Assembly: GCA_963789265.1 (NCBI GenBank)
Contig: CAWBKB010000005.1
Span: forward strand, 32,001 to 96,000
Direction of reading: 5' to 3'
Length of the DNA stretch: 64,000 bases
DNA from: an uncultured delta proteobacterium
GTDB lineage: Bacteria > Desulfobacterota > Desulfomonilia > Desulfomonilales > Desulfomonilaceae
The notes below the pieces were generated by a model. The model worked only from the letters and a program-made list of their open reading frames with translations, was not told where the DNA came from and searched no databases. A program made the position numbers and the translations under genes. Positions 44,207 through 58,365 of this stretch are shown here, piece after piece; positions within the stretch are counted from its first letter, which is position 1, and each line of letters begins with the position of its first letter.

Positions 44207-44542
44207 TCACTCCTCTCTAACGGACGGAGATGGCTGCTCGTCGCCATGTTCCGTCCTCGCAGGAACACAATCTCCTAACGCTTTCCAGATTTCGTCGATT
44301 TGATCGGCATTGAGTCCCAGTTTTTCAAAAGTGCTTTCGAGCTTTTCAACCGACTCCATCTGTCTGACCAGATCGAAGTCTTCCCGGAGACATTTTCCCA
44401 CATAGTACTTTATGAGGGCCTGATATCCGGACATACCTTTGGCAGGAGCGATCTTTTTGAGTTTATCCAACACATCCACCGGAATACGGAGGGATATCAT
44501 GGTCGTAGGACGGTGTTTAGTCGGAATCATTATCTTCTTCAT
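44207..44542 (-). CDS. BrnA/CopG-like antitoxin
   Basis: ISLRIPVDVLDKLKKIA...GYQALIKYYV ribbon-helix-helix-like segment; overlaps the end of the toxin gene. Confidence 0.8.
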   Translation of the reverse strand: MKKIMIPTKHRPTTMISLRIPVDVLDKLKKIAPAKGMSGYQALIKYYVGKCLREDFDLVRQMESVEKLESTFEKLGLNADQIDEIWKALGDCVPARTEHGDEQPSPSVREE

Positions 44543-44834
44543 AGCGTCGTCTCTCCGCGGGTGTGGCAAATCGAGCAGAAATGATTCGCCATGCGTCTTC
44601 TCGCGTTTCTACGGCCACCACACACAGGGGTTTGAACGAATGTACTGGGTATGAGTACCCGACGATTATCCATCGTTCCTCCTTAGCGTGGATGTCCGGG
44701 AACATTTTATAGAAATCATCAATGAACACCTCGCATGCTTGCTCAAACGAGATCCCATGCTTTCGAAGATTCGTTGCGGCCTTTTCAGAATCCCATACGA
44801 AAGTGTATCCCTCGAAAACATGGGTTACGTCCAT
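44517..44834 (-). CDS. brnT: BrnT family ribonuclease toxin
   Basis: FVWDSEKAATNLRKHGISFE, EERW, RIISARFAT..ERRRYE. Confidence 0.92.
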   Translation of the reverse strand: MDVTHVFEGYTFVWDSEKAATNLRKHGISFEQACEVFIDDFYKMFPDIHAKEERWIIVGYSYPVHSFKPLCVVAVETREDAWRIISARFATPAERRRYEEDNDSD

Positions 44835-46724: not shown

Positions 46725-49700
46725 TCAAAAAGTTTTGCGAATGAGCACCCTGGCTATCACTATTCCGTCCCTTTCTTCTACCCTGGCCTCGAATTTCCCT
46801 ATCGAAGCCTTCTCTATGTGACGCTCGGCTTCGTTCCTGAACTCCAACTTCGCTCGCCCCGAATTATCCACGGCCGTCACGTTAATATCTCTTAGATCGA
46901 ATCGCAGGCCGGTTCCTATGGCCTTCAAAGCAGCCTCTTTCAGGCACCACATTCTCGTCAGTTCAATCCAGCGCCGGTCGCTATTTCCGGCGGCCTGAAC
47001 CTCCTCTTCGGTGAAGTAATCGGTGGCCCATATATCGCTTCTGGCTTCCACTTTTTCCAGATCGACGCCCAGTCCTACAAACTCTCCCGGAGCGGTCGCA
47101 GCAGCCATTACCAGGCCATTGGAGTGCGAAAGTGAAACGTCTATTTTCAGGTCCGGTCTCCCCAGTATTTGCCCAATCGGCTTTCCTTGCTCATCCTGGG
47201 TTATGCGAATTTTCTTTTCAGGGAAGGTGGCGACGCCACGGGGTTCGATTGTTCTCCGAATGCTTCTTTTCAGAGCAATTCGACCGGCCAGCCATTCCGA
47301 AGCCCGCTTGGGAGTGGCTTTTTGGCCGTGTTCCGCGATTTCCTCATCGCCGAGTGAGCGCCTCAAAAATGCATCGGGACCGCTTTCCATTCCCTTGACG
47401 ACCTCGGCTACGGGCAGCATTTGTTCAAAGATTTTGCCGGGGAAACCGGAACTCTGCTCGAGTTCTACAATTTCCACACCTTTCAATCTGATAAGATCTC
47501 TGCCTGCACGGTCCCTTATTACTCCATCAAACTTGATAACAGTTTCTTTTTTCCAAACCTTCCCGAGAAGTTTCAACCGGTATTAATTCCCCTTCCCATG
47601 GCAATGAATCGACAGCACAGACCTGAACAGATTCCGTCCCCGTGGGCAGGGCCATTATCCCGAGGGATTCCACACCAAAGGCGGCCGCTGCTTGGAAAGT
47701 GGCTTCTATAGCTGATGACGTGATATCGGTAAACATGGCCTCGCGTTCGGACGTATCTCTGTAACGGAATCTGACCCCTCTTCTGTTACCTTCAATAACC
47801 ACATGGTCCAGAAACTTGAAGCCGGGCCCATGAAAGAATACCGAGTAAAGATCGTGCTCCGCGATCCACACCGATTCATTCCAAGGCGTGAGATCCAAGC
47901 AGGGCATCTGTTCGACAGTCCCGGCGGCGGCAAGACGGCACCGATGATGCAGCCGAGGTGATCCGACCCGGTTTCCCTCGCGGTCCACAAACCATGAAAA
48001 GATCCTTGCATGGTAAGTGTTGTGATTAGATCCCTCGGAAATGCGTGTTACCTCTACCTCGGCTCGGAATGGATCATCCTTGAATATCTTCAGGGGGCTG
48101 ACAAAACGTACGTCTTCAAACCTGGAGCAGGCTACTTCGGGGCTAAGCAGGGCAGCCGCGGCGCGCATTATCTCCATTCCACCCACGCCGGGCAGCACCG
48201 CTGCGCGGTCTATCCGGTGATGGTTCAATAGGGGATGCGAAGGGTCAAGCATGATCTCGGCCCGCAAGTATTCTCCGGGCAGGATCGACAGGAGCCTTCC
48301 GGGCTGACCTGCGAACCGCAGCTCGCCGAAATCTGCCGTACCGGGGAGGGTAAAAGCATCTGAAGTGAAGGGCCCTAATCTCCCCGCGCTTACGACCTCG
48401 CAAGCACCGGAAGTGCGTTCCAGTTCCCGCGCCAGGACTTCCACGCCCTTCTGTGGCGAAATGAAATCAATGCCGGCAGCTTCAAGGCTTTGTTGCACAC
48501 TGCCCCTCGTAGCCATGCCAACTTCGGACCATGGAGCCCAATCGATTATAGAGACTTTGGCATCCCAATCGCGGTCCGCTCTTCTCAACAGGTGCGCCAG
48601 CCCGTCATTGGCTGCGGAGTAGTCAACTTGCGCCATATTTCCAAATCGTCCCGCGACACTTCCAAACCCGACGACTCGCCGGGGCAGCATCCCATATTGG
48701 TTCAGGGCCTCCATGATGTTGCGCATTCCCTGAATCTTGACCGATACAACATTCTGCATCTGTTCTAAGGTCTTGCTCCGCAGCGCACGGCTCACGTCGA
48801 TTCCCGCACCGTGGACAACCACGTCCACGCGGCGGCAAGTTTCCGCGACGTGGCTAACGGCTTCGCCCACGGCATCTCGGTCGCGTATATCAACCGCCCT
48901 GTAAATGACTTCGGAACCCAAGCTTCGGAGATTTAGAATATTCCTGAACACCTCTGCTTCCGACTCAAGCGCGGCAAGCTCCTTTTCCACTTTCACTGGA
49001 GTGATAGGTACACCTTGTCGCTTCATTCGGTCTATGATTCTGGTCTTCTCTTCGGCCCACTGCTCGGGATTGAAACCGGCGAGTTGCTCGGCACGCCCGG
49101 AAAGCGACGTTCGACCGAGAATTACGACGGTCAGGTTATGCTTTTCTGCGAGATGTGAAAGGCAAGAGGCGGTGATGCCCCTGGCGCCGCCGCTCGCCAG
49201 TACGACGTCCCCGGTTCTGATTCCGGCGTCTCTCTCCTGCTCGATCATAGGTACCAGGCGAACGGTTCTCAATTCTCCGCTTTCTCTCACCGCGGTTTCC
49301 AGTGGAAAAGCTTCTCCTAGACTGCGAATAATTATCTCAGCGAGTTCCCCGGAGCCAAAATCCGGATGGAAATCCAACAGTCGCACAGTGGTGGCTGGAT
49401 ATTCTCTGGAAAAAGCTTTCGTGGCGCCGGCGACCGCACCGGCTATATCACCGGTTTCCGAGGGACAATCAAAGCCGTATGTGCCGTCTTCCGATACAGC
49501 GGTCACCAAAAACGAAGGACCCTTACCAAAGGCCGACGCGCAGGAAAGGTAAAGCTCGAAAGTTTTTCTCAAGGAGAGGGGATCGCCGTCCAGAGGAAAA
49601 AGGTTGATCAATCCTGTCCGCTTGGCAGTCAAATTGTCGGGGAGAACCGGATACGAGGATTGTCTCACGCTTGAATAACCGAGCGCGCCAAGTGCTTTCG

Positions 49701-52700
49701 CTACGTCCGCCGCAAGACCGGCAGGGCCACCCAGAACCAACACTTCCTCGGCTTCCGGCAGGGGCACTTCTTGAAGTGCGGGCAAGGCCACAAGCCTTGC
49801 TTCAAATAGTCGCACCTCTTCTTCAACGTTAGGAGTCTTCTCAACCCGGCTCTCCAGCGGTTGTTGGGCAGCCGAGGACGACGCCTTTCGGCGCTTCTCC
49901 TGAACAAAGCCGATAATGTGCTTTATCGTCGGAAAATCAGCAATCTTCAGACCTTCGATTCGCGGGATGTTGAAGGCATCTCTGACTTCGGAGATGAATT
50001 CAGCCTGTTTAACAGTATCAATACCCAGATCTGCTTCCAAATCGAGATCCGTATCCAGCATATCCGGCGGGTAACCGGTCTTGGCCGAGAGGAGCGCGAG
50101 GATCTTTTCTCTCACCTCATCCTCACCGTCCGCGACCGGGATTGTCATCTCCTTCGATCCGACATCTGCCCCGCGCGCGGTCTCGGTCACCGAAACTTTG
50201 ACGGTTTGTGCGCGAACAAAATCGATTATGTGCTCTATGGTCGGAAATTCAGCAATCTTAAGTCCCTCTATGCGCGGGATATTGAACGCTTCCCTCACTT
50301 CGGAGATGAATTCCGCTTGCTTTACTGTGTCGATACCCAGATCAGCCTCTAAATCCAAGCCGGTGTCCAGCATGTCCGCGGGATAACCGGTCTTATCTGA
50401 TAGCAAGGCCAGAATTTTTAAGCGAATTTCCTCAGCTCCTCCGGCCGCCTTTGCCGCAACCGGCAAGCTTTCAGGCTCGGATTGATCCCGTTCCTCGGCC
50501 GAAGGTGTGTGTCGGGCAACGGCCTGGCCGACCGAACGCTCGGTCATTCTCAGGGTTCGCTGCTCTATCGAGGCTACGGGGTCGGCGTACCCGCTGATAT
50601 CCTTCAGCCAGCTTCGATGGGCATGAAGATCCGTGATGCGGTTTTCTTCACGACTCACAACTTTGTATAGTGCCATAACAATTTGCGAACCGAACCCCGC
50701 GGCCAATCTGAGAGCGTAATTTGCCTCGCACTTCCCGCCTCGGCTCAGATTAAGGTCCGCAAACTCTGGATCCGGCTGCCTTAGATTCGGAATGGGGGGC
50801 ATCATGCCCTTCTGGAGGCAGCGCAGGGCTACAACGTCCTCGACGCCCACTCCCATAGTGTGTCCCGTGAATCCCTTGGTGTTGGCTATTGGGATCTGCC
50901 GAGCCTGGTCGCCGAAAGTTTTCCGCAGAGCGCGAACTTCTGCCGCCGAACTCCCACCTCGCTTGGGCGAATACGTTTCGTGGGACATGAAAAGAACATC
51001 CCGTGCAAGGTCATGCCGAGAAATGCCGGACTGCTCCTCCCATTTAGCTATCATAGTTTCCATAACGGAACTGATATGGTCTACATCCAAGCGGGTACCA
51101 TGAAATCCGCTGTTGGCTACCACTCCGGTCTCGATCGTAGCTATGGCCTCCATGCCCCTCTTTTTGACAAGGTCCTGATTTTCCAAAACTATGCCCACTG
51201 CGGCGGAGCCCAGGATCAAACCGTGGCGCCGATCGTCGAAAGGTAGAGCGGCTTCACTAACATTGCCGTTGGTTGTAGCTGCGCCGACAGCCAGGAACCC
51301 GGAGCCCACCCAAGGGAACAGTGTCTGCCCCGCGACATCGTCCGCGGCAATGACGATAACTCTTTTGGCCTGACCGGTGCGGATCCAGTCACGCGCCAAA
51401 AGTATTGCTTGGGTTGTCCCCGCGCAGGCTGCGTCGACGTGGGTGTTCGGTCCCTGAGCTTTGATGAGTTGCGCGAACTGGCCGTGCGCCATGCTGACAA
51501 CGCGAAGGAGAAAATCCCTGTTGAAAGTGTAAAGTTCTTCCGATCCGGCCAGATTCAGGCGGCCGAATTCTTCTGTGAACCACGCAGTGATTCGTTCTCT
51601 TTCGCCGTCGTCTCTGATATTGGCCACAAGCCCCGTATAAAACTCAATAAGTCGTTTCTTGGCCCCTGAGCCGTATCGGCTCGCAGCTTCCCTGGTCACT
51701 TCGTCTATGAGGGATGCCATCCCCGGAAACGCCGAGGCAAAAATAATCCCCGTTTCCCTTCGCAAAGAGGGCGGCAGTGCCCAGGAATCCGGCAATTCGC
51801 GCCCCGTGCTGGTGGTGCGAATCTGACGGATTAGAGGAATTCCAGCTCCTCTGAGAGCCTCGAGACCGGCGGCAATGGCCAGGCGGGTTGTTACGTCCAT
51901 TGACCTTATCAATCGCTCATCCAGGCCGTACTCCTCTATGATCTCTTCATCATTGAAAAAACCTGCCAATTTGATGACGTCGGAAAGGTCCTCCACCATC
52001 TGGGTTTCAACTTCACCGGAGGGCCCCTTCAACAAGCGTTCCACGTTCTTTTCCAGCATTCTGCGGCGCCCGTGCTCCGATATCTTCTTAATAAAGTTCC
52101 GGCCAAGTATGAGGTCTTCCAGAGTTTCCCTATCAAACGGGAACCGCACATCACTGGGAAGCCCGGCTGCCATGCCGCTCACGGCCACCGGAGAGAAATC
52201 CATGCCCTCGGATTCGACCTGCTTTGCGGTTTGGTCCAGCGGGAGCACATGTTTTAAAAATGATTGAAATCCTGATTTGATGAGCTGCCGGATCGGCTCA
52301 CCCTGGATTTCCAGGAATCGCTTGAACTCCCGCCGAGAGGTGATTTCTCTTATCTCCGGATCCAGAAGCCCTTCCAGTGGATCAGCCTCTTTCGGTTGAG
52401 CAGTTTGGATTTGCTGCGTAACTGGCTGAGAAGCCGGTCTCACTACTCTCAGCTCGGCCTTTTCGCGACGAGCCTCAGGTTTTGAGGATTCCATCGGACT
52501 GTCCGCCCCGACAAAATCCACGTCGACACCTTCCGCGGCCAATGCAGCCAGAGTCTCCATGAGTTGCAGCATGCCGCTCTTCTTCGGGTGGTTGGTGGGC
52601 AGCGCCATAACGTCGTGTGAAAGAGTGTCCAGCGTCAGATTCGTCATCACTCGTTTGGGCCCGCACTCCAGGAAAATCCTGATCCCTTCACTGTAGAGGC

Positions 52701-55700
52701 GTCTTAACGTTTTCACCCACTCCACAGGAGCCGCAAACTGTTTGCCTAGGAGGTTCGCGAATCCGGTTGGGGGCAGCAGGGCCAACCGGGTAAAAATCTC
52801 CGGTCACATTGGAGAGCACCGGAACAGAAGGAGGATTCACAGTGAGTCTTTCCAGGGTCTTCATGAAAGGTTCTCGCGTGGGAGCCACTACCCCGGAATG
52901 GAACGCGGCCGACACCGGGAGGATGGTCCCCTCCATCCCTCTGGCTTTGAAAAGCTCGCCAGCCCTTTGTACAGCAAGGGTCTCGCCGGAAATCACTGTC
53001 TGCTTGGGCGAGTTTTTATTCGCCGCGACCACGTATCCGTCAACCTCCGCTAGTACCTCTTCTACCACCCGCGCATCGGCAGGTACGCTCATCATCAGAC
53101 CCGGATCTGCGATGCTTACTCGGGCCATTTCACGCCCGCGAACCGCCACAGCTTCGACCGCATCGCGAAAGAAAAAACACCAGCCGCTACGCAGGCCGAA
53201 TATTCTCCGAGCGAATGGCCCGCGCATGCCGCCGGCTTCACCCCCATCAAGGATAAGAGTCTGAAGATTGCAGTGTTAGCGGTCAGAATCATCGGCTGAA
53301 GGAGTTGAGTATCCTTCATTGCATCTGCCTGACGGTTTGCGACTTCGCTGCTGTTGCCGTCGGCAAGAAACACAACAGAGGTAACTGTAGGGAGGCCAAG
53401 AGAGGACAAGATTTCGTCCGCTTCCTGGAAGGTCTGCGCAACCACGGGGAAGCGTTCTGCCAGGTCTCGAAGCATGTATGGATACTGCGAGCCCTGACCG
53501 GGGAAGAGGAAAGCCACACCATCTCGGACCCGGCTCGGACGGCCCTGGCAAAGGTGCATGCCCCTGGCGGGGAAAGCCGCTTGTTTACCGGGATCAACAA
53601 GTCCATCGCGCAAAAGTGAAAGCTTCTTGGAGGCCGATTCCGCATCTTGAGTCGCAAACCCGCAGCGGAGGTCCAATTGGCCTGCCTCTTCTCTGCAACG
53701 AGCCGCTAATGCCGCTGTATTTTCTGAGGTTAACTCCTGGAGGAGGCGTTCGACCTTGCCGATTAGATCCCCGGGGTCCGTTCCGCCGATAACCCACGCG
53801 TCGCCCTGAATTTGCATTCCCGGAAGACGAGGCCAGTCAGGGGGTCTAAATTCAATTGCGGCTTCGGTCTTCTTTTTGCCGGCAACAAGGCGAAGGCCGG
53901 GGACGTGCTCCTGGACGATTACGTGAAAATTAGTTCCGCCAAACCCGAACGCGCTGACCCCGGCTCTTCGAACGGACCCGTTGTCGGCTTTCCAGGAACG
54001 TGCTTCGGTCAAAAGAAAAAGAGGAGACGATTCCCACTCTATGCATGGATTCGGCCGTCGCACATTAATGGTGGGCGGCAATGTACGATGATACAGACTG
54101 AGGATCGCCTTTATCATCCCGGCAGCGCCCGCGGCGGCCTTGAGATGGCCTATCTGAGATTTTACGGACCCGATGCCGACTGACGCCCGAGGGATTCCAG
54201 CCGCCCTTAGCAAGCGATCCAGAACTGTCAGTTCGGTTGTGTCCCCAACCGGCGTAGAAGTCCCGTGGGCTTCAATGAGACCAATCGATCCGGGATCAAT
54301 CCGGGAAGCATTCAGGCATGCCCGCACAGCACGTTCCTGCCCGGCTGCATTGGGCGCGGTTATCCCCTTGCCCTTTCCGTCTGAAGAGGAACCGATTTCC
54401 AGGATTGTTCCGTAGATCCTGTCGCCGTCCCGAAGAGCGTCGGAAACTCGCTTCAGAATCATGATCCCCGCGCCTTCACCCATGACAAAGCCATTGGCCG
54501 ACTCGTCAAAGGGCCGGCTACCGTCAGGCGACAGCGCGCCTACCTTGCAAAACTTGATGAAGGACGAAGGGTGCATGGCAGCGTCCACGCCCCCGGTAAC
54601 AGCGTAGTCTATGCTCCCTTCACGCAACGCGGCCATCGCGTTCATGGCCGCGGCCATGGAAGATGCACAGGCAGCGTCAACTGTAAAGTTAGGGCCCTCC
54701 AGATTAAACACGTTGGCCACGCGGCCTGAAATGATGTTGGCCAACTCCCCGGGAAGTGAATCTTCTGTGATTTCGGGGAGGTTTTCGAGATAACGGGAAC
54801 GGAATTCGTTCACTAGATCTTTCTTGACACTCGCGTCCAGATTCAACGAACTGAGGGCTTCCTCGAGGCATGACACAGATCGCGGCAGGCTTACACGCTC
54901 CGCGTATCTGTCAGTGGTATCTCCCCCCATACTGTTCCCCAGGATCACCCCTACTCTTTTGCCCCTCAACTGTTCCGAGGAGAGACCGGCATCCTGCAAC
55001 GCATCTGCCACGCAGGTCACTGCCATTTGCTGGGTCCGATCCATCTTCCGGGCGACTGCGGGGGGAATACGATATTTGAGCGGTTCAAATGCGAAATCCC
55101 GGATGAACCCGCCTATCTGTGTGTAACTCTTGTCAGGGGCTTTGGGATCGGGATCGTAGTAAAAATGCAGGTTTCCCCATCGTTCTTCAGGAACCGGTCC
55201 TATTCCACTTCTTCCGCTCACAATCTGTTCCCAAAAAGAATTAGGAGAATCTGAACCAGGGAAGCGCAATCCTATACCGATAACTGCAATGGGCTCTTTT
55301 TCGTAGCTAATCTCGACTGGCAGCTCCTTATGCGGCGTCTCATCACTCAGTTCGTCTTCGGCCCTGTGTGAATCCGACATTTCCTCGAAAAGACGTCTCC
55401 CCTCCTCAATGATTTCCTCGTGAAGTTTCTCGATCCTGCGGGGAGTCTCAAGAAGAGAGACTACTTGTCCCATCAAGTAGAGGCCTCGGTCCAACTGCTC
55501 TTCAGGGGGCAAGTCGCAAAATACCGGGCAGTCGAAGGTGGCAGTTTCAGGATCAATCGCGCATCCCTTTGAAGCAAGCCTGAGTGCGCCCAGGTTATCC
55601 TTTTCGTACAGCTCTTTGCGCTCGCGCAAAGAGACGCACGCTCGGAGGCGCTCTTGCTCCCTTTCAATTAGCTTCGAGGCCATTGGAGAGCCCGCCGCGC

Positions 55701-57388
55701 GTGCCTTGGTGTTCACCGTGCGGCCTATAACCACCGTGCGGTCGCTCTGCAAGGTGAGTTTTTGATAGGTGGGTGTGATAGCGCAGGTGGCAACTGCTTC
55801 TTCGGTGGCAAGATAAGCAGTCCCCATCTGGAGACCGACATTGAGACCTTTTTCCACAAGGTCTCCCACCATGCCCGCCACGAAGGCGGCTGCTCGACCG
55901 GTGGCTATTCCTCCTGCAAAAAGGACCCGTACTTCGTCCAGATCAATGCCATTTGCGGCAGCGGATTCCAGTTCGTTAAGATTCGCGCTCCAGAGGTTCA
56001 AGCTTCCTAACGTGCCTATGTGCCCACCTGATTCGCACCCTTCGAACACAAACCGCCTATGGCCTGCCCGAAGCGCTTCTCCTAGTATCGCTGGGGAGGG
56101 GCAGTGCAAGTAACAAGCGGTGCCCATGGCCTCTATTGATTTAGCGAGATCTATGCTCCCTGCGGCGAGAATGGCAAATGCAGGAGGGTCCTCTCTCATT
56201 ATCTCCAGATGAGCCTCGTAGCAATGCCTGTTCACTTCCAGTCCTATAAGACCTACGCCGAACCTGCCTCCGGTCTTTTCTCCGGCAAGACCAATGCCCT
56301 CTCGCGCGATTGGGCCCGGCATGTTACCCATGGCAAGAAAAGGCAAGGCCCCTCCCGCGGCGACCGCGGCGAGAAAGTCGGGATTGTCGCTCACATGGGC
56401 CATAGGACCTTGAACTATCGGGAAACGAGTCCCGTGGTCGCCACAAAGTGAAGAACCTTCATGGAACGGCCACGTATTGCCAAATCCGGCCATTGCCCGT
56501 CCAAAAGCCGCGACAATCGCGCCGGCACTCCCGTGTTGAGCAGCCAACTCTTTGGCGGTTCCGATGTCTTCGGACATGGGCAACAGGATCTCGGCTGAAT
56601 CCGGCGACGCCCCGCGACCGCGGAGCGCGTTGCACAGACGCTCCCGATAGGAATCCAAGTCCTGACCTGACACGGAATCCTCGAGCTTCTTCAGTTCACG
56701 CACCATGCGAGTGCCGGCTCGGGAGTAGACTCGCAAGGGAGTAGCTGTCCCCTCTGCCAGCGTAACGGTAGTGGGTAGCCCCAATGAGCTGAGAAAATCA
56801 CGAAGCGAGGGATCGACGTGCGAGCCGTTCGTGAGCAATAGATGAATGTCCAAAACAACGCCTGTAGCCCCCGCGGCCCTGACACCCGCCGCAGTTCGAA
56901 GACTCACGCCCCCTTGGAGAAAGAGCGGCAGATCACAGATCGAACGGATTTCCTGAAGAAGAAACCAGCCCGCTGGTGTCGCTTACCCAACCCGGGCCTT
57001 CATTTCCGCGCGCAATAAGACCGGCAGCCCCGGCCCTTTCCGCGGCCAATGCCTGGTTTGCGCTGCCAACCTCTACCGCAACTGGTCTAGGCACGGACTT
57101 AAGGGCCGCAGGTTCGAGCGAAGCAACTTTCTCGGCTTCTTCAAAGGGAAGCAGAAGCAGTTTAACTTGTTCATCCGAAGCGAATCGTTCCAAATCTTCC
57201 ATGAAAACCCGTGCGCCGTGGGGAATGCCGGGCGACACAGTAAACTGGGCGGGACCTCCAGTCACGTGATCGACAATTCCCAATCCTCCCGAGCTGGAAA
57301 TCGCCTCCACAAGACCCGGATGAGAGTTAATTGCCGGGTTGACGTAAAGTACAGGTATCTTCAAATCAAATGGCAGCCGTAATTTCAT
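46725..57388 (-). CDS. Pfa-like iterative type I FAS/PKS megasynthase (ER-ER-KS-AT-KS-ACP-ACP-KR-DH-PPTase), 3,553 aa after four 1-bp indel corrections
   Basis: Indels near 56963 (+1), 53169 (-1), 52754 (+1) and 47550 (+1) each restore continuous domain sequence. Motifs: FabK/NMO-type ER (QGPMA, EGCESGGHIG, FAGGI); KS (DAACASS, EAHGTST, KSQIGHL); AT (FPGQGSQ, GHSLGE, AFHS); second KS (DAACAG, SHETY, GHT); 2x LGIDTVK; KR (GGARGI, YSAAN); DH (HHRIDRAAVLPG); PPTase (SLSHS, GVDLE, WCLKEA). Confidence 0.88.
49895..50435 (-). repeat. Tandem duplicated ACP-coding repeats (approximate bounds)
   Basis: Two near-identical units KILALLSxKTGYPxDMLDTxLDLEADLGIDTVKQAEFISEVRxAFNIPRIEGLKIAxFPTI. Confidence 0.85.
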
Positions 57389-58365
57389 GAGATCACCTTT
57401 AATGCGCTAAATTTGTTCGCCTGATCAGGGGGAACCACGAAGCCGTAAAACAAAACCTCTTTCACTGTTTCAACTTCATTCAGAAGAGATCCTTCCGCAC
57501 CTTCGTGCAGCCACTTCTGGATCACTCCGTTAAGAAAACCTATGATGCCGAAAAAAACGGTGAAGTAGTTCATCTGCTTGAGATGACCCTTCCGGGAAGC
57601 TTTCCAGCAGCGCCTTTTCAGAGCAGGTAGGGCAAGAATGAGTTCGTTGATAAATTTCTCCGAGAACTCCCGGCCGAAATCTTTGTGTTCTTGGATGATG
57701 ACTTTGAAAAAAGCCGAGTTCGTTTCGAAGAAGCTAAGATAATTCTTTATAACGCTCTCCAGGAACTTCAGAACATCGTCTTCACGGCTCAAGTCCTGCC
57801 GCACATGGTCCACAAATTCACTCATGGTGTCTTCTTTGAGGGCATTGAAGAGAGCTTCTTTAGTATTGAAGTAGCGGTAGACGGTTCCTTTAGCGATGCC
57901 GGCCCTTTCGGCGATGGAATCGATTGTGGACGCGTGGTACCCCTTGTCGGAGAATTCATCGAGCGCGGACTGGAGTATCCTGGACCGAGCGTCTTTCTGT
58001 TTCTTTCGCTTTGAACTTTCACTATTCAAGGGCCTACGAAGGCTCTGGAAAAGCAGATCCTCGAGTATGTTTTGTCGCGGAACACCCGCGGTATCGGCCA
58101 CAGTCAGGACACTACGGTAGAATTCCCTTACCAGAGGGTCAGAATAAATTGGAGAGACTGCTAATGCCTGTGTGGATTTCTCCACGAAGTAGAGTATAAT
58201 TTCTTCGGGCGTCAAATCCGACTGGTCACTCTTGGCGAGTTCCGTTTCCAATATTCGGATGAGTTGAGGCACCGCGAAGGTGTCTTTATGGACCTTGGTC
58301 TTAAATACGACATCGCGAACGTCTTTTTCGAGGTTTGATTTCACGGGAGTTCTCCAGAAAAACAC
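57385..58365 (-). CDS. TetR/AcrR family regulator with an N-terminal extension
   Basis: ILQSALDEFSDKGYHASTIDSIAERAGIAKGTVYRYFNTKEALF HTH; the stop overlaps the megasynthase start (ATGA). Confidence 0.9.
   Translation of the reverse strand: MFFWRTPVKSNLEKDVRDVVFKTKVHKDTFAVPQLIRILETELAKSDQSDLTPEEIILYFVEKSTQALAVSPIYSDPLVREFYRSVLTVADTAGVPRQNILEDLLFQSLRRPLNSESSKRKKQKDARSRILQSALDEFSDKGYHASTIDSIAERAGIAKGTVYRYFNTKEALFNALKEDTMSEFVDHVRQDLSREDDVLKFLESVIKNYLSFFETNSAFFKVIIQEHKDFGREFSEKFINELILALPALKRRCWKASRKGHLKQMNYFTVFFGIIGFLNGVIQKWLHEGAEGSLLNEVETVKEVLFYGFVVPPDQANKFSALKVIS

Follow-up and report, generated by a model that had tools for sequence, protein, structure and literature searches.

Threonine at the attachment site of two carrier domains

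A 64,000-nucleotide stretch of DNA from an uncultured delta proteobacterium of the family Desulfomonilaceae (assembly GCA_963789265.1, contig CAWBKB010000005.1, positions 32,001 to 96,000), referred to here as the window, encodes on its minus strand a large multidomain synthase with two tandem acyl carrier protein (ACP) domains and a phosphopantetheinyl transferase (PPTase). Carrier proteins are primed on the serine (Ser) of a (D/H)S motif, and to our knowledge the phosphopantetheine arm sits on serine in every carrier protein studied so far, whether from fatty acid synthases (FAS), polyketide synthases (PKS), non-ribosomal peptide synthetases, or other systems. A sequence-only reading of the window had noticed threonine (Thr) at this position in both ACP domains, and our analysis confirms the observation. 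The two repeats read LDLEADLGIDTVKQAEF on the minus strand, and the translations of ACP1 and ACP2 alike give LDLEADLGIDTVKQAEFISEV. The site threonine of ACP1 (50215..50418, minus strand) is encoded by ACA at 50326..50328, in the codon context GGT ATC GAC ACA GTA AAG CAA GCG GAA, and that of ACP2 (49906..50109, minus strand) by ACT at 50014..50016, in the context GGT ATT GAT ACT GTT AAA CAG GCT GAA. Homologs with threonine or serine at the site are called Thr-type and Ser-type below.

Both copies are recognized as carrier domains by the Pfam family PF00550 (PP-binding), at 52 bits, where the cut-off is 20.8. Both contain threonine in the place that in carrier domains belongs to the serine of a (D/H)S(L/I) motif, where helix II begins. 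The di-ACP of PigH (5y08) is the only solved relative, and in a phmmer alignment the serines of its DLGVDSIALAE and DLGIDSVSVA motifs lie opposite the two threonines. Therefore, the threonine occupies the canonical phosphopantetheine position.

Organization and integrity of the synthase gene

As assembled, the synthase gene consists of five pieces, all on the minus strand, separated by four single-base, frame-breaking indels. Base-level alignment to an ortholog from the same genus places the indels at about 56964, 53170, 52755, and 47545, each within or beside a short homopolymer. The first piece (56933..57388) contains the N-terminus of the enoyl reductase (ER/NMO) region and is severed from the second by a one-base insertion near 56962-56964. 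The second piece (53116..56907) encodes the NMO-type ER, the first ketosynthase (KS1), and the N-terminal part of the acyltransferase (AT) with its GHSLGE motif, and the third (52688..53227), located between the frameshifts near 53167-53170 and 52755, encodes the middle of the AT domain. The fourth piece (47527..52785) comprises the AT C-terminus, a second ketosynthase (KS2, about 50578-52020), ACP1, ACP2, the ketoreductase (KR, about 48418-49710), and the dehydratase (DH, about 47527-48330). A one-base insertion near 47543-47545 splits off the fifth piece (46725..47576), which encodes an Sfp-type PPTase domain with an ACPS match at about 46812-47075.

The same-genus ortholog, P0004, is a single open frame of 3,553 amino acids that is about 90% identical to the window protein and has the domain order ER(NMO)-KS1-AT-KS2-ACP-ACP-KR-DH-PPTase. 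Short-read contigs from two public runs, which are possibly the source of the assembly itself, have one letter fewer at 56962 and at 47543 and one more behind 53167, and are otherwise identical to the window stretch, so that three of the four frameshifts are repaired. In comparison with the same-genus ortholog, the ratio of nonsynonymous to synonymous substitution rates (dN/dS) amounts to 0.16 for 1741 codons and to 0.11 within the ACP didomain. The short-read repair and the low dN/dS argue that the breaks are consensus errors and that the gene is intact, with the PPTase fused. The window gene thus probably encodes one protein of about 3,550 amino acids with the order ER-KS-AT-KS2-ACP-ACP-KR-DH-PPTase. 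The PPTase had been described as fused in the sequence-only reading; in the assembly it occupies a separate frame (46725-47576), but it is fused in the same-genus ortholog, and the short-read contig does not contain the separating frameshift.

A gene in five pieces with four single-base frameshifts could be an artefact or a decaying pseudogene, in which an odd residue would have no functional meaning. This explanation is largely refuted and barely credible, as the indels all lie in or beside short homopolymers, three of them are absent from otherwise identical short-read contigs, dN/dS is 0.16, intact orthologs of about 3,550 amino acids keep the threonine, and the two window codons for it differ (ACA and ACT). 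The accumulation of four homopolymer-linked indels in one 10.7-kb gene, three of them contradicted by short-read contigs, indicates that the assembly probably contains similar consensus errors elsewhere, and its split genes should be treated with caution.

Class of the synthase

Passages of a study of secondary lipid synthases describe Type R as KS-MAT-CLF-ACP(3-6)-KR with a PPTase gene, where CLF is a chain-length factor, and name Acidobacteria (Koribacter, Solibacter), Elusimicrobium, and Roseiflexus as its hosts (Shulse and Allen 2011, PMC3098273). The supplementary table of that paper lists the Type S synthase of Desulfobacterium autotrophicum as ER-KS-CLF-AT-KS-ACP3-KR. The ortholog P0004 conforms to the Type R/S description (ER-KS1-AT-KS2-ACP2-KR-DH-PPT), with an ACP number of two, not three to six; its N-terminal ER brings it close to Type S. 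Among representatives spanning AT to KR, a second KS between the AT and the ACPs is present in 31 of 34 Thr-type proteins and in none of the 26 Ser-type ones. Judging from these domain architectures, Thr-type ACPs mark two-ketosynthase secondary lipid synthases of Type R/S. The active-site motifs of KS2 of the window are retained, with the cysteine in DAACAG and the two histidines in SHET and GHT. KS2 is probably a genuine condensing enzyme rather than a chain-length factor.

Conservation and distribution of the threonine

A six-frame search of 41 genomes, including that of the window, identified the ACP didomain in 23 of them. The gene is present in 22 of the 24 other genomes of the same family, compared with none of 16 from another family of the class. 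Across 20 orthologous loci examined at the family level, which include only part of the 27 match rows, DLGIDTVKQAEF is found in all 42 ACP copies. The threonine is encoded by ACG in 28 copies, ACC in seven, ACT in four, and ACA in three, so that all four codons are used. Loci L030 and L031 were set aside. Serine is one base change away, and the presence of threonine in 42 of 42 copies therefore indicates that it is kept by selection; the threonine is subject to strong purifying selection. The same residue is present in intact orthologs of about 3,550 amino acids. The sequence-only reading had named homologs that mostly retain serine as the result that would speak against it, and this is not what is found, since threonine is kept both in the orthologs and in the wider clade.

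A HMMER search of 1.84 billion representative proteins (E <= 1e-3) returned 5,806 matches, of which the best 150 were scored with a domain hidden Markov model. Threonine alone is present in 102 of these 150 proteins, with two to six copies each, and serine alone in 44, which have the PfaA-like motif LGIDSIKRVE; in the remaining four, a Thr array is accompanied by a single additional copy that is degenerate. In total, the best 150 contain threonine at 386 sites, serine at 230, alanine at one, and glycine at one. The residues of helix II co-vary with the site residue, as DSIKRVE in Ser-type and DTVKQAE in Thr-type domains. LGIDSIK, which had been taken as the reference motif of PfaA carriers, was recovered as LGIDSIKRVE 155 times among the Ser-type matches. 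The ACP motif, in two to six tandem copies, is the most conserved of the protein.

The four apparently mixed arrays were not counted as cases of serine and threonine working together, because the extra ACP-like copy is low-scoring and degenerate; it has serine in P0048 and P0138, alanine in P0049, and glycine in P0110. Such a divergent copy, terminal or internal to some Thr arrays, could be either a repeat that has degenerated or a domain specialised in docking.

Scanning one genome per species with a sequence pattern yielded at least 592 confirmed loci in Thermodesulfobacteriota/Desulfomonilales, Chloroflexota, Acidobacteriota, Myxococcota, Elusimicrobiota, Actinomycetota, Spirochaetota, Gemmatimonadota, and Rhodothermales, and the Thr-type ACP system spans at least eight phyla. 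The nearest among the loci listed are from Desulfomonilales, with 71-74% identity, and those from Actinomycetota include an Amycolatopsis isolate. Since the pattern contained DTVKQAE, the scan shows the distribution of the system and not the frequency of threonine. For the same reason, the presence of threonine in 292 of 292 copies in 80 of the pattern-found loci is circular as evidence of conservation and was set aside.

The relationship of the two types was analysed in an unrooted FastTree phylogeny of the KR domain, calculated from 77 of 151 proteins (50 Thr and 27 Ser rows), the others containing less than 75% of the KR. The Ser/Thr label changes only twice on the tree, and none of 500 shuffles gave so low a number. 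One Ser clade, with a support of 100, unites the classical PfaA proteins. A pair of Ser-type proteins, P0144 and P0064, with the otherwise Thr-like motif LGIDSVKQ[AG]E, is nested among Thr-type rows with a support of 97, which indicates that serine and threonine have replaced each other within one functional family. Such replacement, as read from the tree, is what would be expected if both were attachment residues.

The accompanying phosphopantetheinyl transferase

The PPTase domain of the window matches the Pfam family ACPS with 58.7 bits against a cut-off of 25, whereas the match to 4PPT_N (22.4 bits) is under the cut-off of 27. The best matches among solved structures are human AASDHPPT (2cg5, 2byd) and Bacillus subtilis Sfp (1qr0, 4mrt), both of low similarity (E 8e-6 to 1e-3). 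In the alignment with Sfp, the motifs SLSHS, GVDLE, and WCLKEAALK have NISHS, GIDIE, and WSMKESFIK as their counterparts. The catalytic and Mg-coordinating residues are intact, namely the histidine of SHS, the aspartate and glutamate of GxDxE, and the glutamate and lysine of WxxKExxK, which we take to be His90, Asp107, Glu109, Glu151, and Lys155 in Sfp numbering, and they are conserved in 14 PPTases encoded in cis with Thr-type synthases. A PPTase in cis is found in 13 of 57 Thr-type representatives with KR, compared with none of 30 Ser-type ones. In five distant genomes with Thr arrays, the best PPTase match is directly downstream of the array in three (Leptospiraceae, Elusimicrobium, and Anaerolineae, the last match being weak), and in Amycolatopsis it is about 8 kb away (within about 9 kb).

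The residues of the carrier and the enzyme also bear on whether the domains could use another attachment residue, prosthetic group, or linkage, such as direct O-acylation of the threonine without the arm. Nothing positive points to this beyond the missing canonical serine, and it is very improbable. The domain contains no invariant serine (FISEV alternates with FITEV and FIAEV), the enzyme that goes with it is a PPTase that uses coenzyme A (CoA), with Mg and base residues intact, and a long flexible thiol arm is a requirement of KS, KR, DH, and ER domains.

When the PPTase domain was modelled together with ACP2, CoA, and Mg, the complex scored 0.78, while the best of three controls scored 0.08. 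Among solved complexes, 116 of 157 attain the score mark, compared with two of 215 mismatched pairs. At least 96% of contacts are shared between the model runs, and the predicted confidence (pLDDT) of the partner is at least 82. In the model, Thr2458 contacts the catalytic Glu3484, and Val2459 contacts Glu3444 and Trp3480. The modelled pair resembles an ordinary PPTase and its carrier, with the threonine in the active site, the modification of threonine itself being beyond the model.

Carriers and transferases in whole genomes

According to the sequence-only reading, the window contains no Ser-type ACP, and this is borne out by a PF00550 search of the whole 6.06-Mb, nine-contig genome, which gave five matches, only two of them in the window. 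The other three carry serine and belong to one stand-alone AcpP-like ACP and two megasynthase domains of the DLSIRSSRLPV type. The genome encodes a fabF-acpP(Ser)-fabG-fabD cluster and a 129-residue AcpS, both elsewhere. The housekeeping Ser-ACP/AcpS system is separate from the Thr-type synthase.

The AcpP-like ACP (contig C1:787586-787789; L001:1477-1722, minus strand) reads LGAESLD, with glutamate before the serine, where most ACPs have aspartate. The same genome contains a second synthase set on contig C7 (L120:4326-13210, minus strand), in which frames for ER (NMO), KS-AT-ACP-KR, DH, and PPTase are adjacent or overlapping and are followed by a gene for a B12-binding radical SAM protein. 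The single ACP of this set has its serine in DLSIRSSRLPV, with arginine where carriers have aspartate or histidine before the serine, and in a rough alignment its PPTase seemingly lacks the histidine of SHS and the glutamate of GxDxE. A third megasynthase, on contig C1 (690174-690368), has the same DLSIRSSRLPV type of ACP.

The 2.1-Mb Elusimicrobium genome contains five PP-binding matches, one stand-alone ACP and four Thr-type domains, and two PPTase matches, one in a 130-residue frame and one adjoining the synthase. The Anaerolineae genome has the same pattern of one stand-alone ACP, a Thr array, and two PPTases. These inventories leave the Sfp-type enzyme of those genomes without an evident substrate other than the Thr-type ACPs; in the Elusimicrobium genome, the stand-alone ACP is the one further candidate.

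Proposed loading of the threonine

We infer, with a probability of roughly 0.65, that the threonine accepts the phosphopantetheine and that the Sfp-type PPTase of the synthase itself loads it. The two domains would be working carriers of an iterative, PfaA-like secondary lipid synthase of Type R/S, and the attachment residue for the 4'-phosphopantetheine arm in the Thr-type family would be threonine instead of serine. The C-terminal Sfp-type PPTase would move the arm from CoA to the threonine hydroxyl, by analogy with yeast FAS and enediyne PKSs, where the acceptor is serine. The resulting holo-ACPs would shuttle malonyl and acyl thioesters among the two KS domains, AT, KR, DH, and ER. The threonine may also shield the carriers from enzymes of the AcpS type and perhaps from ACP phosphodiesterase.

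Several points weigh against this proposal. The weightiest is the S36T variant of Escherichia coli ACP, which, according to passages of PMC3340395, cannot be modified with 4'-phosphopantetheine, is non-functional, and does not support growth. It follows that at least AcpS-type enzymes reject threonine. Searches of the open-access full text of PubMed Central and bioRxiv found no report of threonine-linked phosphopantetheine and none of a threonine at this site in any carrier, although subscription papers could hold one. The fourth frameshift, near 52755, is bridged by none of the listed short-read contigs. The score of the modelled complex is blind to the difference between serine and threonine chemistry and, because complexes resembling that of Sfp with a peptidyl carrier protein have been solved, its passing may reflect likeness or memory. 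The strongest PPTase match of one Myxococcales genome is about 900 kb from the Thr-ACP array. Finally, an alignment of cis, adjacent, and unrelated Sfp-type PPTases, from which wrong or truncated frames were ignored (Amycolatopsis L115, L118, and L119; Anaerolineae L116), contains no residue specific to the Thr clade. Since no PPTase residues were identified that would explain a preference for threonine, we put forward the co-evolved and orthogonal pair as a hypothesis. The idea that Thr-ACPs have a PPTase of their own, which dates from the sequence-only reading, agrees with the dedicated PPTase in cis or nearby in most genomes examined, but is not matched by a PPTase motif of the Thr clade.

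The S36T result concerns AcpS, a PPTase of another class, and fits a threonine that insulates the carriers from the housekeeping enzyme. Together with the missing precedent for threonine-linked phosphopantetheine and the presence of a Ser-type AcpP and an AcpS in the genome of the window, it would also agree with the alternative of the sequence-only reading, that the Thr domains are unmodified, structural or docking elements and that a separate Ser-ACP (AcpP) works in trans. We consider this quite unlikely. No other motif of the protein is as conserved as the Thr ACPs, which come in two to six tandem copies, and tandem ACPs raise throughput in polyunsaturated fatty acid synthases, as stated in passages of PMC3098273. 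Proteins with Thr-type carriers alone have an intact PPTase fused to them or encoded next to them, and the Elusimicrobium enzyme would be left without a substrate except AcpP, which already has an AcpS-like partner. Moreover, Ser variants nest inside the Thr clade.

If the threonine is modified, the PPTase could still be ordinary, with Sfp-type enzymes generally accepting threonine in this helix II and the change from serine to threonine being a nearly neutral marker. Such an explanation would account for the absence of a Thr-clade motif from the PPTase alignment, for the interchange of serine and threonine on the KR tree, and for the Myxococcales genome, in which the only detected PPTase relative is far from the array. 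It is nevertheless unlikely, given that threonine is present in 42 of 42 copies with serine one base change away, that the residues of helix II co-vary with it, and that most genomes examined retain a dedicated PPTase along with the synthase.

The loading of the threonine by the accompanying PPTase can be extended to a broader proposal, which we regard as evenly balanced between right and wrong. O-(4'-phosphopantetheinyl)-threonine would be a natural modification, made by a dedicated branch of Sfp-type enzymes on the tandem ACPs of Type R/S synthases in hundreds of species from at least eight phyla. The threonine and the DTVKQAE helix II would keep AcpS, and perhaps ACP phosphodiesterase, out, which would make this a naturally orthogonal carrier/PPTase pair. 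If true, the proposal would broaden the chemistry of a post-translational modification that is among the most studied and would explain the dedicated PPTases of Type R/S synthases, and the carrier with its enzyme could serve as an orthogonal tag/enzyme pair in protein labelling and pathway engineering. Under the standard carrier signature, as under the S36T result, threonine counts as dead, and genome-mining rules that require serine may score Thr-type domains as inactive. Heterologous expression of the orphan synthases would probably need their own PPTase.

Neighbouring genes

A gene for a TetR-family regulator (57385..58365, minus strand) precedes the synthase gene, and its stop overlaps the synthase start by four bases, an arrangement that recurs at the same-genus ortholog. 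Further along, a BrnT toxin and a CopG-type (BrnA-like) antitoxin are encoded as a pair at 44207-44834 (minus strand), between a histidine kinase gene and genes for fumarate hydratase.

Comparison with known systems

The window carriers share with the S36T variant of E. coli AcpP the fold and a threonine at the same position. That variant is engineered, whereas the threonine of the window occurs naturally, is conserved, and goes together with a PPTase of another class. Known Sfp-type PPTases act on serine. The window enzyme differs from Sfp and AASDHPPT in being fused to the synthase and in its presumed acceptor, threonine.

Enediyne PKSs of the SgcE/CalE8 type (KS-AT-ACP-KR-DH-PPTase) and yeast FAS have integrated PPTases that load the ACP in cis on serine. 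The window synthase resembles them as an iterative synthase with its own C-terminal PPTase and the order KS-AT-...-ACP-KR-DH-PPTase. In contrast to it, those enzymes do not have a second KS, an N-terminal ER, or tandem Thr-type ACPs, and no enediyne cluster genes were seen adjoining the window synthase gene.

The best NCBIfam match of the intact ortholog P0004 is the PfaA family (TIGR02813, omega_3_PfaA), at 869.4 bits and thus below the cut-off of 1010.1, and PfaA-like Ser-type proteins are the next-nearest matches after the Thr-type ones. As in PfaA, tandem ACPs follow KS-AT and precede KR, and the context of helix I and the loop, KTGYP...DMEADLGID, is the same. The window synthase departs from the order and motif of PfaA in its site threonine and its helix II, which is DTVKQAE and not the LGIDSIKRVE type, in the extra KS with its Cys-His-His residues between the AT and the ACPs, and, in its intact form, in the fusion of ER, DH, and PPTase in one chain.

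The Type R/S secondary lipid synthases are from the same phyla as Thr-type loci, including a genome recorded as Elusimicrobium minutum. The window protein differs from them in having two ACPs and in combining ER, DH, and PPTase in one chain. Its KS2 retains the cysteine and both histidines, whereas passages of PMC3098273 describe the second KS as a CLF. Among the proteins of that paper, the ACP residue was compared for the Elusimicrobium genome, and the available text passages and supplement do not mention 'threonine'. The synthase type is already known as an orphan class, and the combination of a Thr-type carrier with a dedicated PPTase is apparently a variant of the carrier/PPTase system that has not been described.

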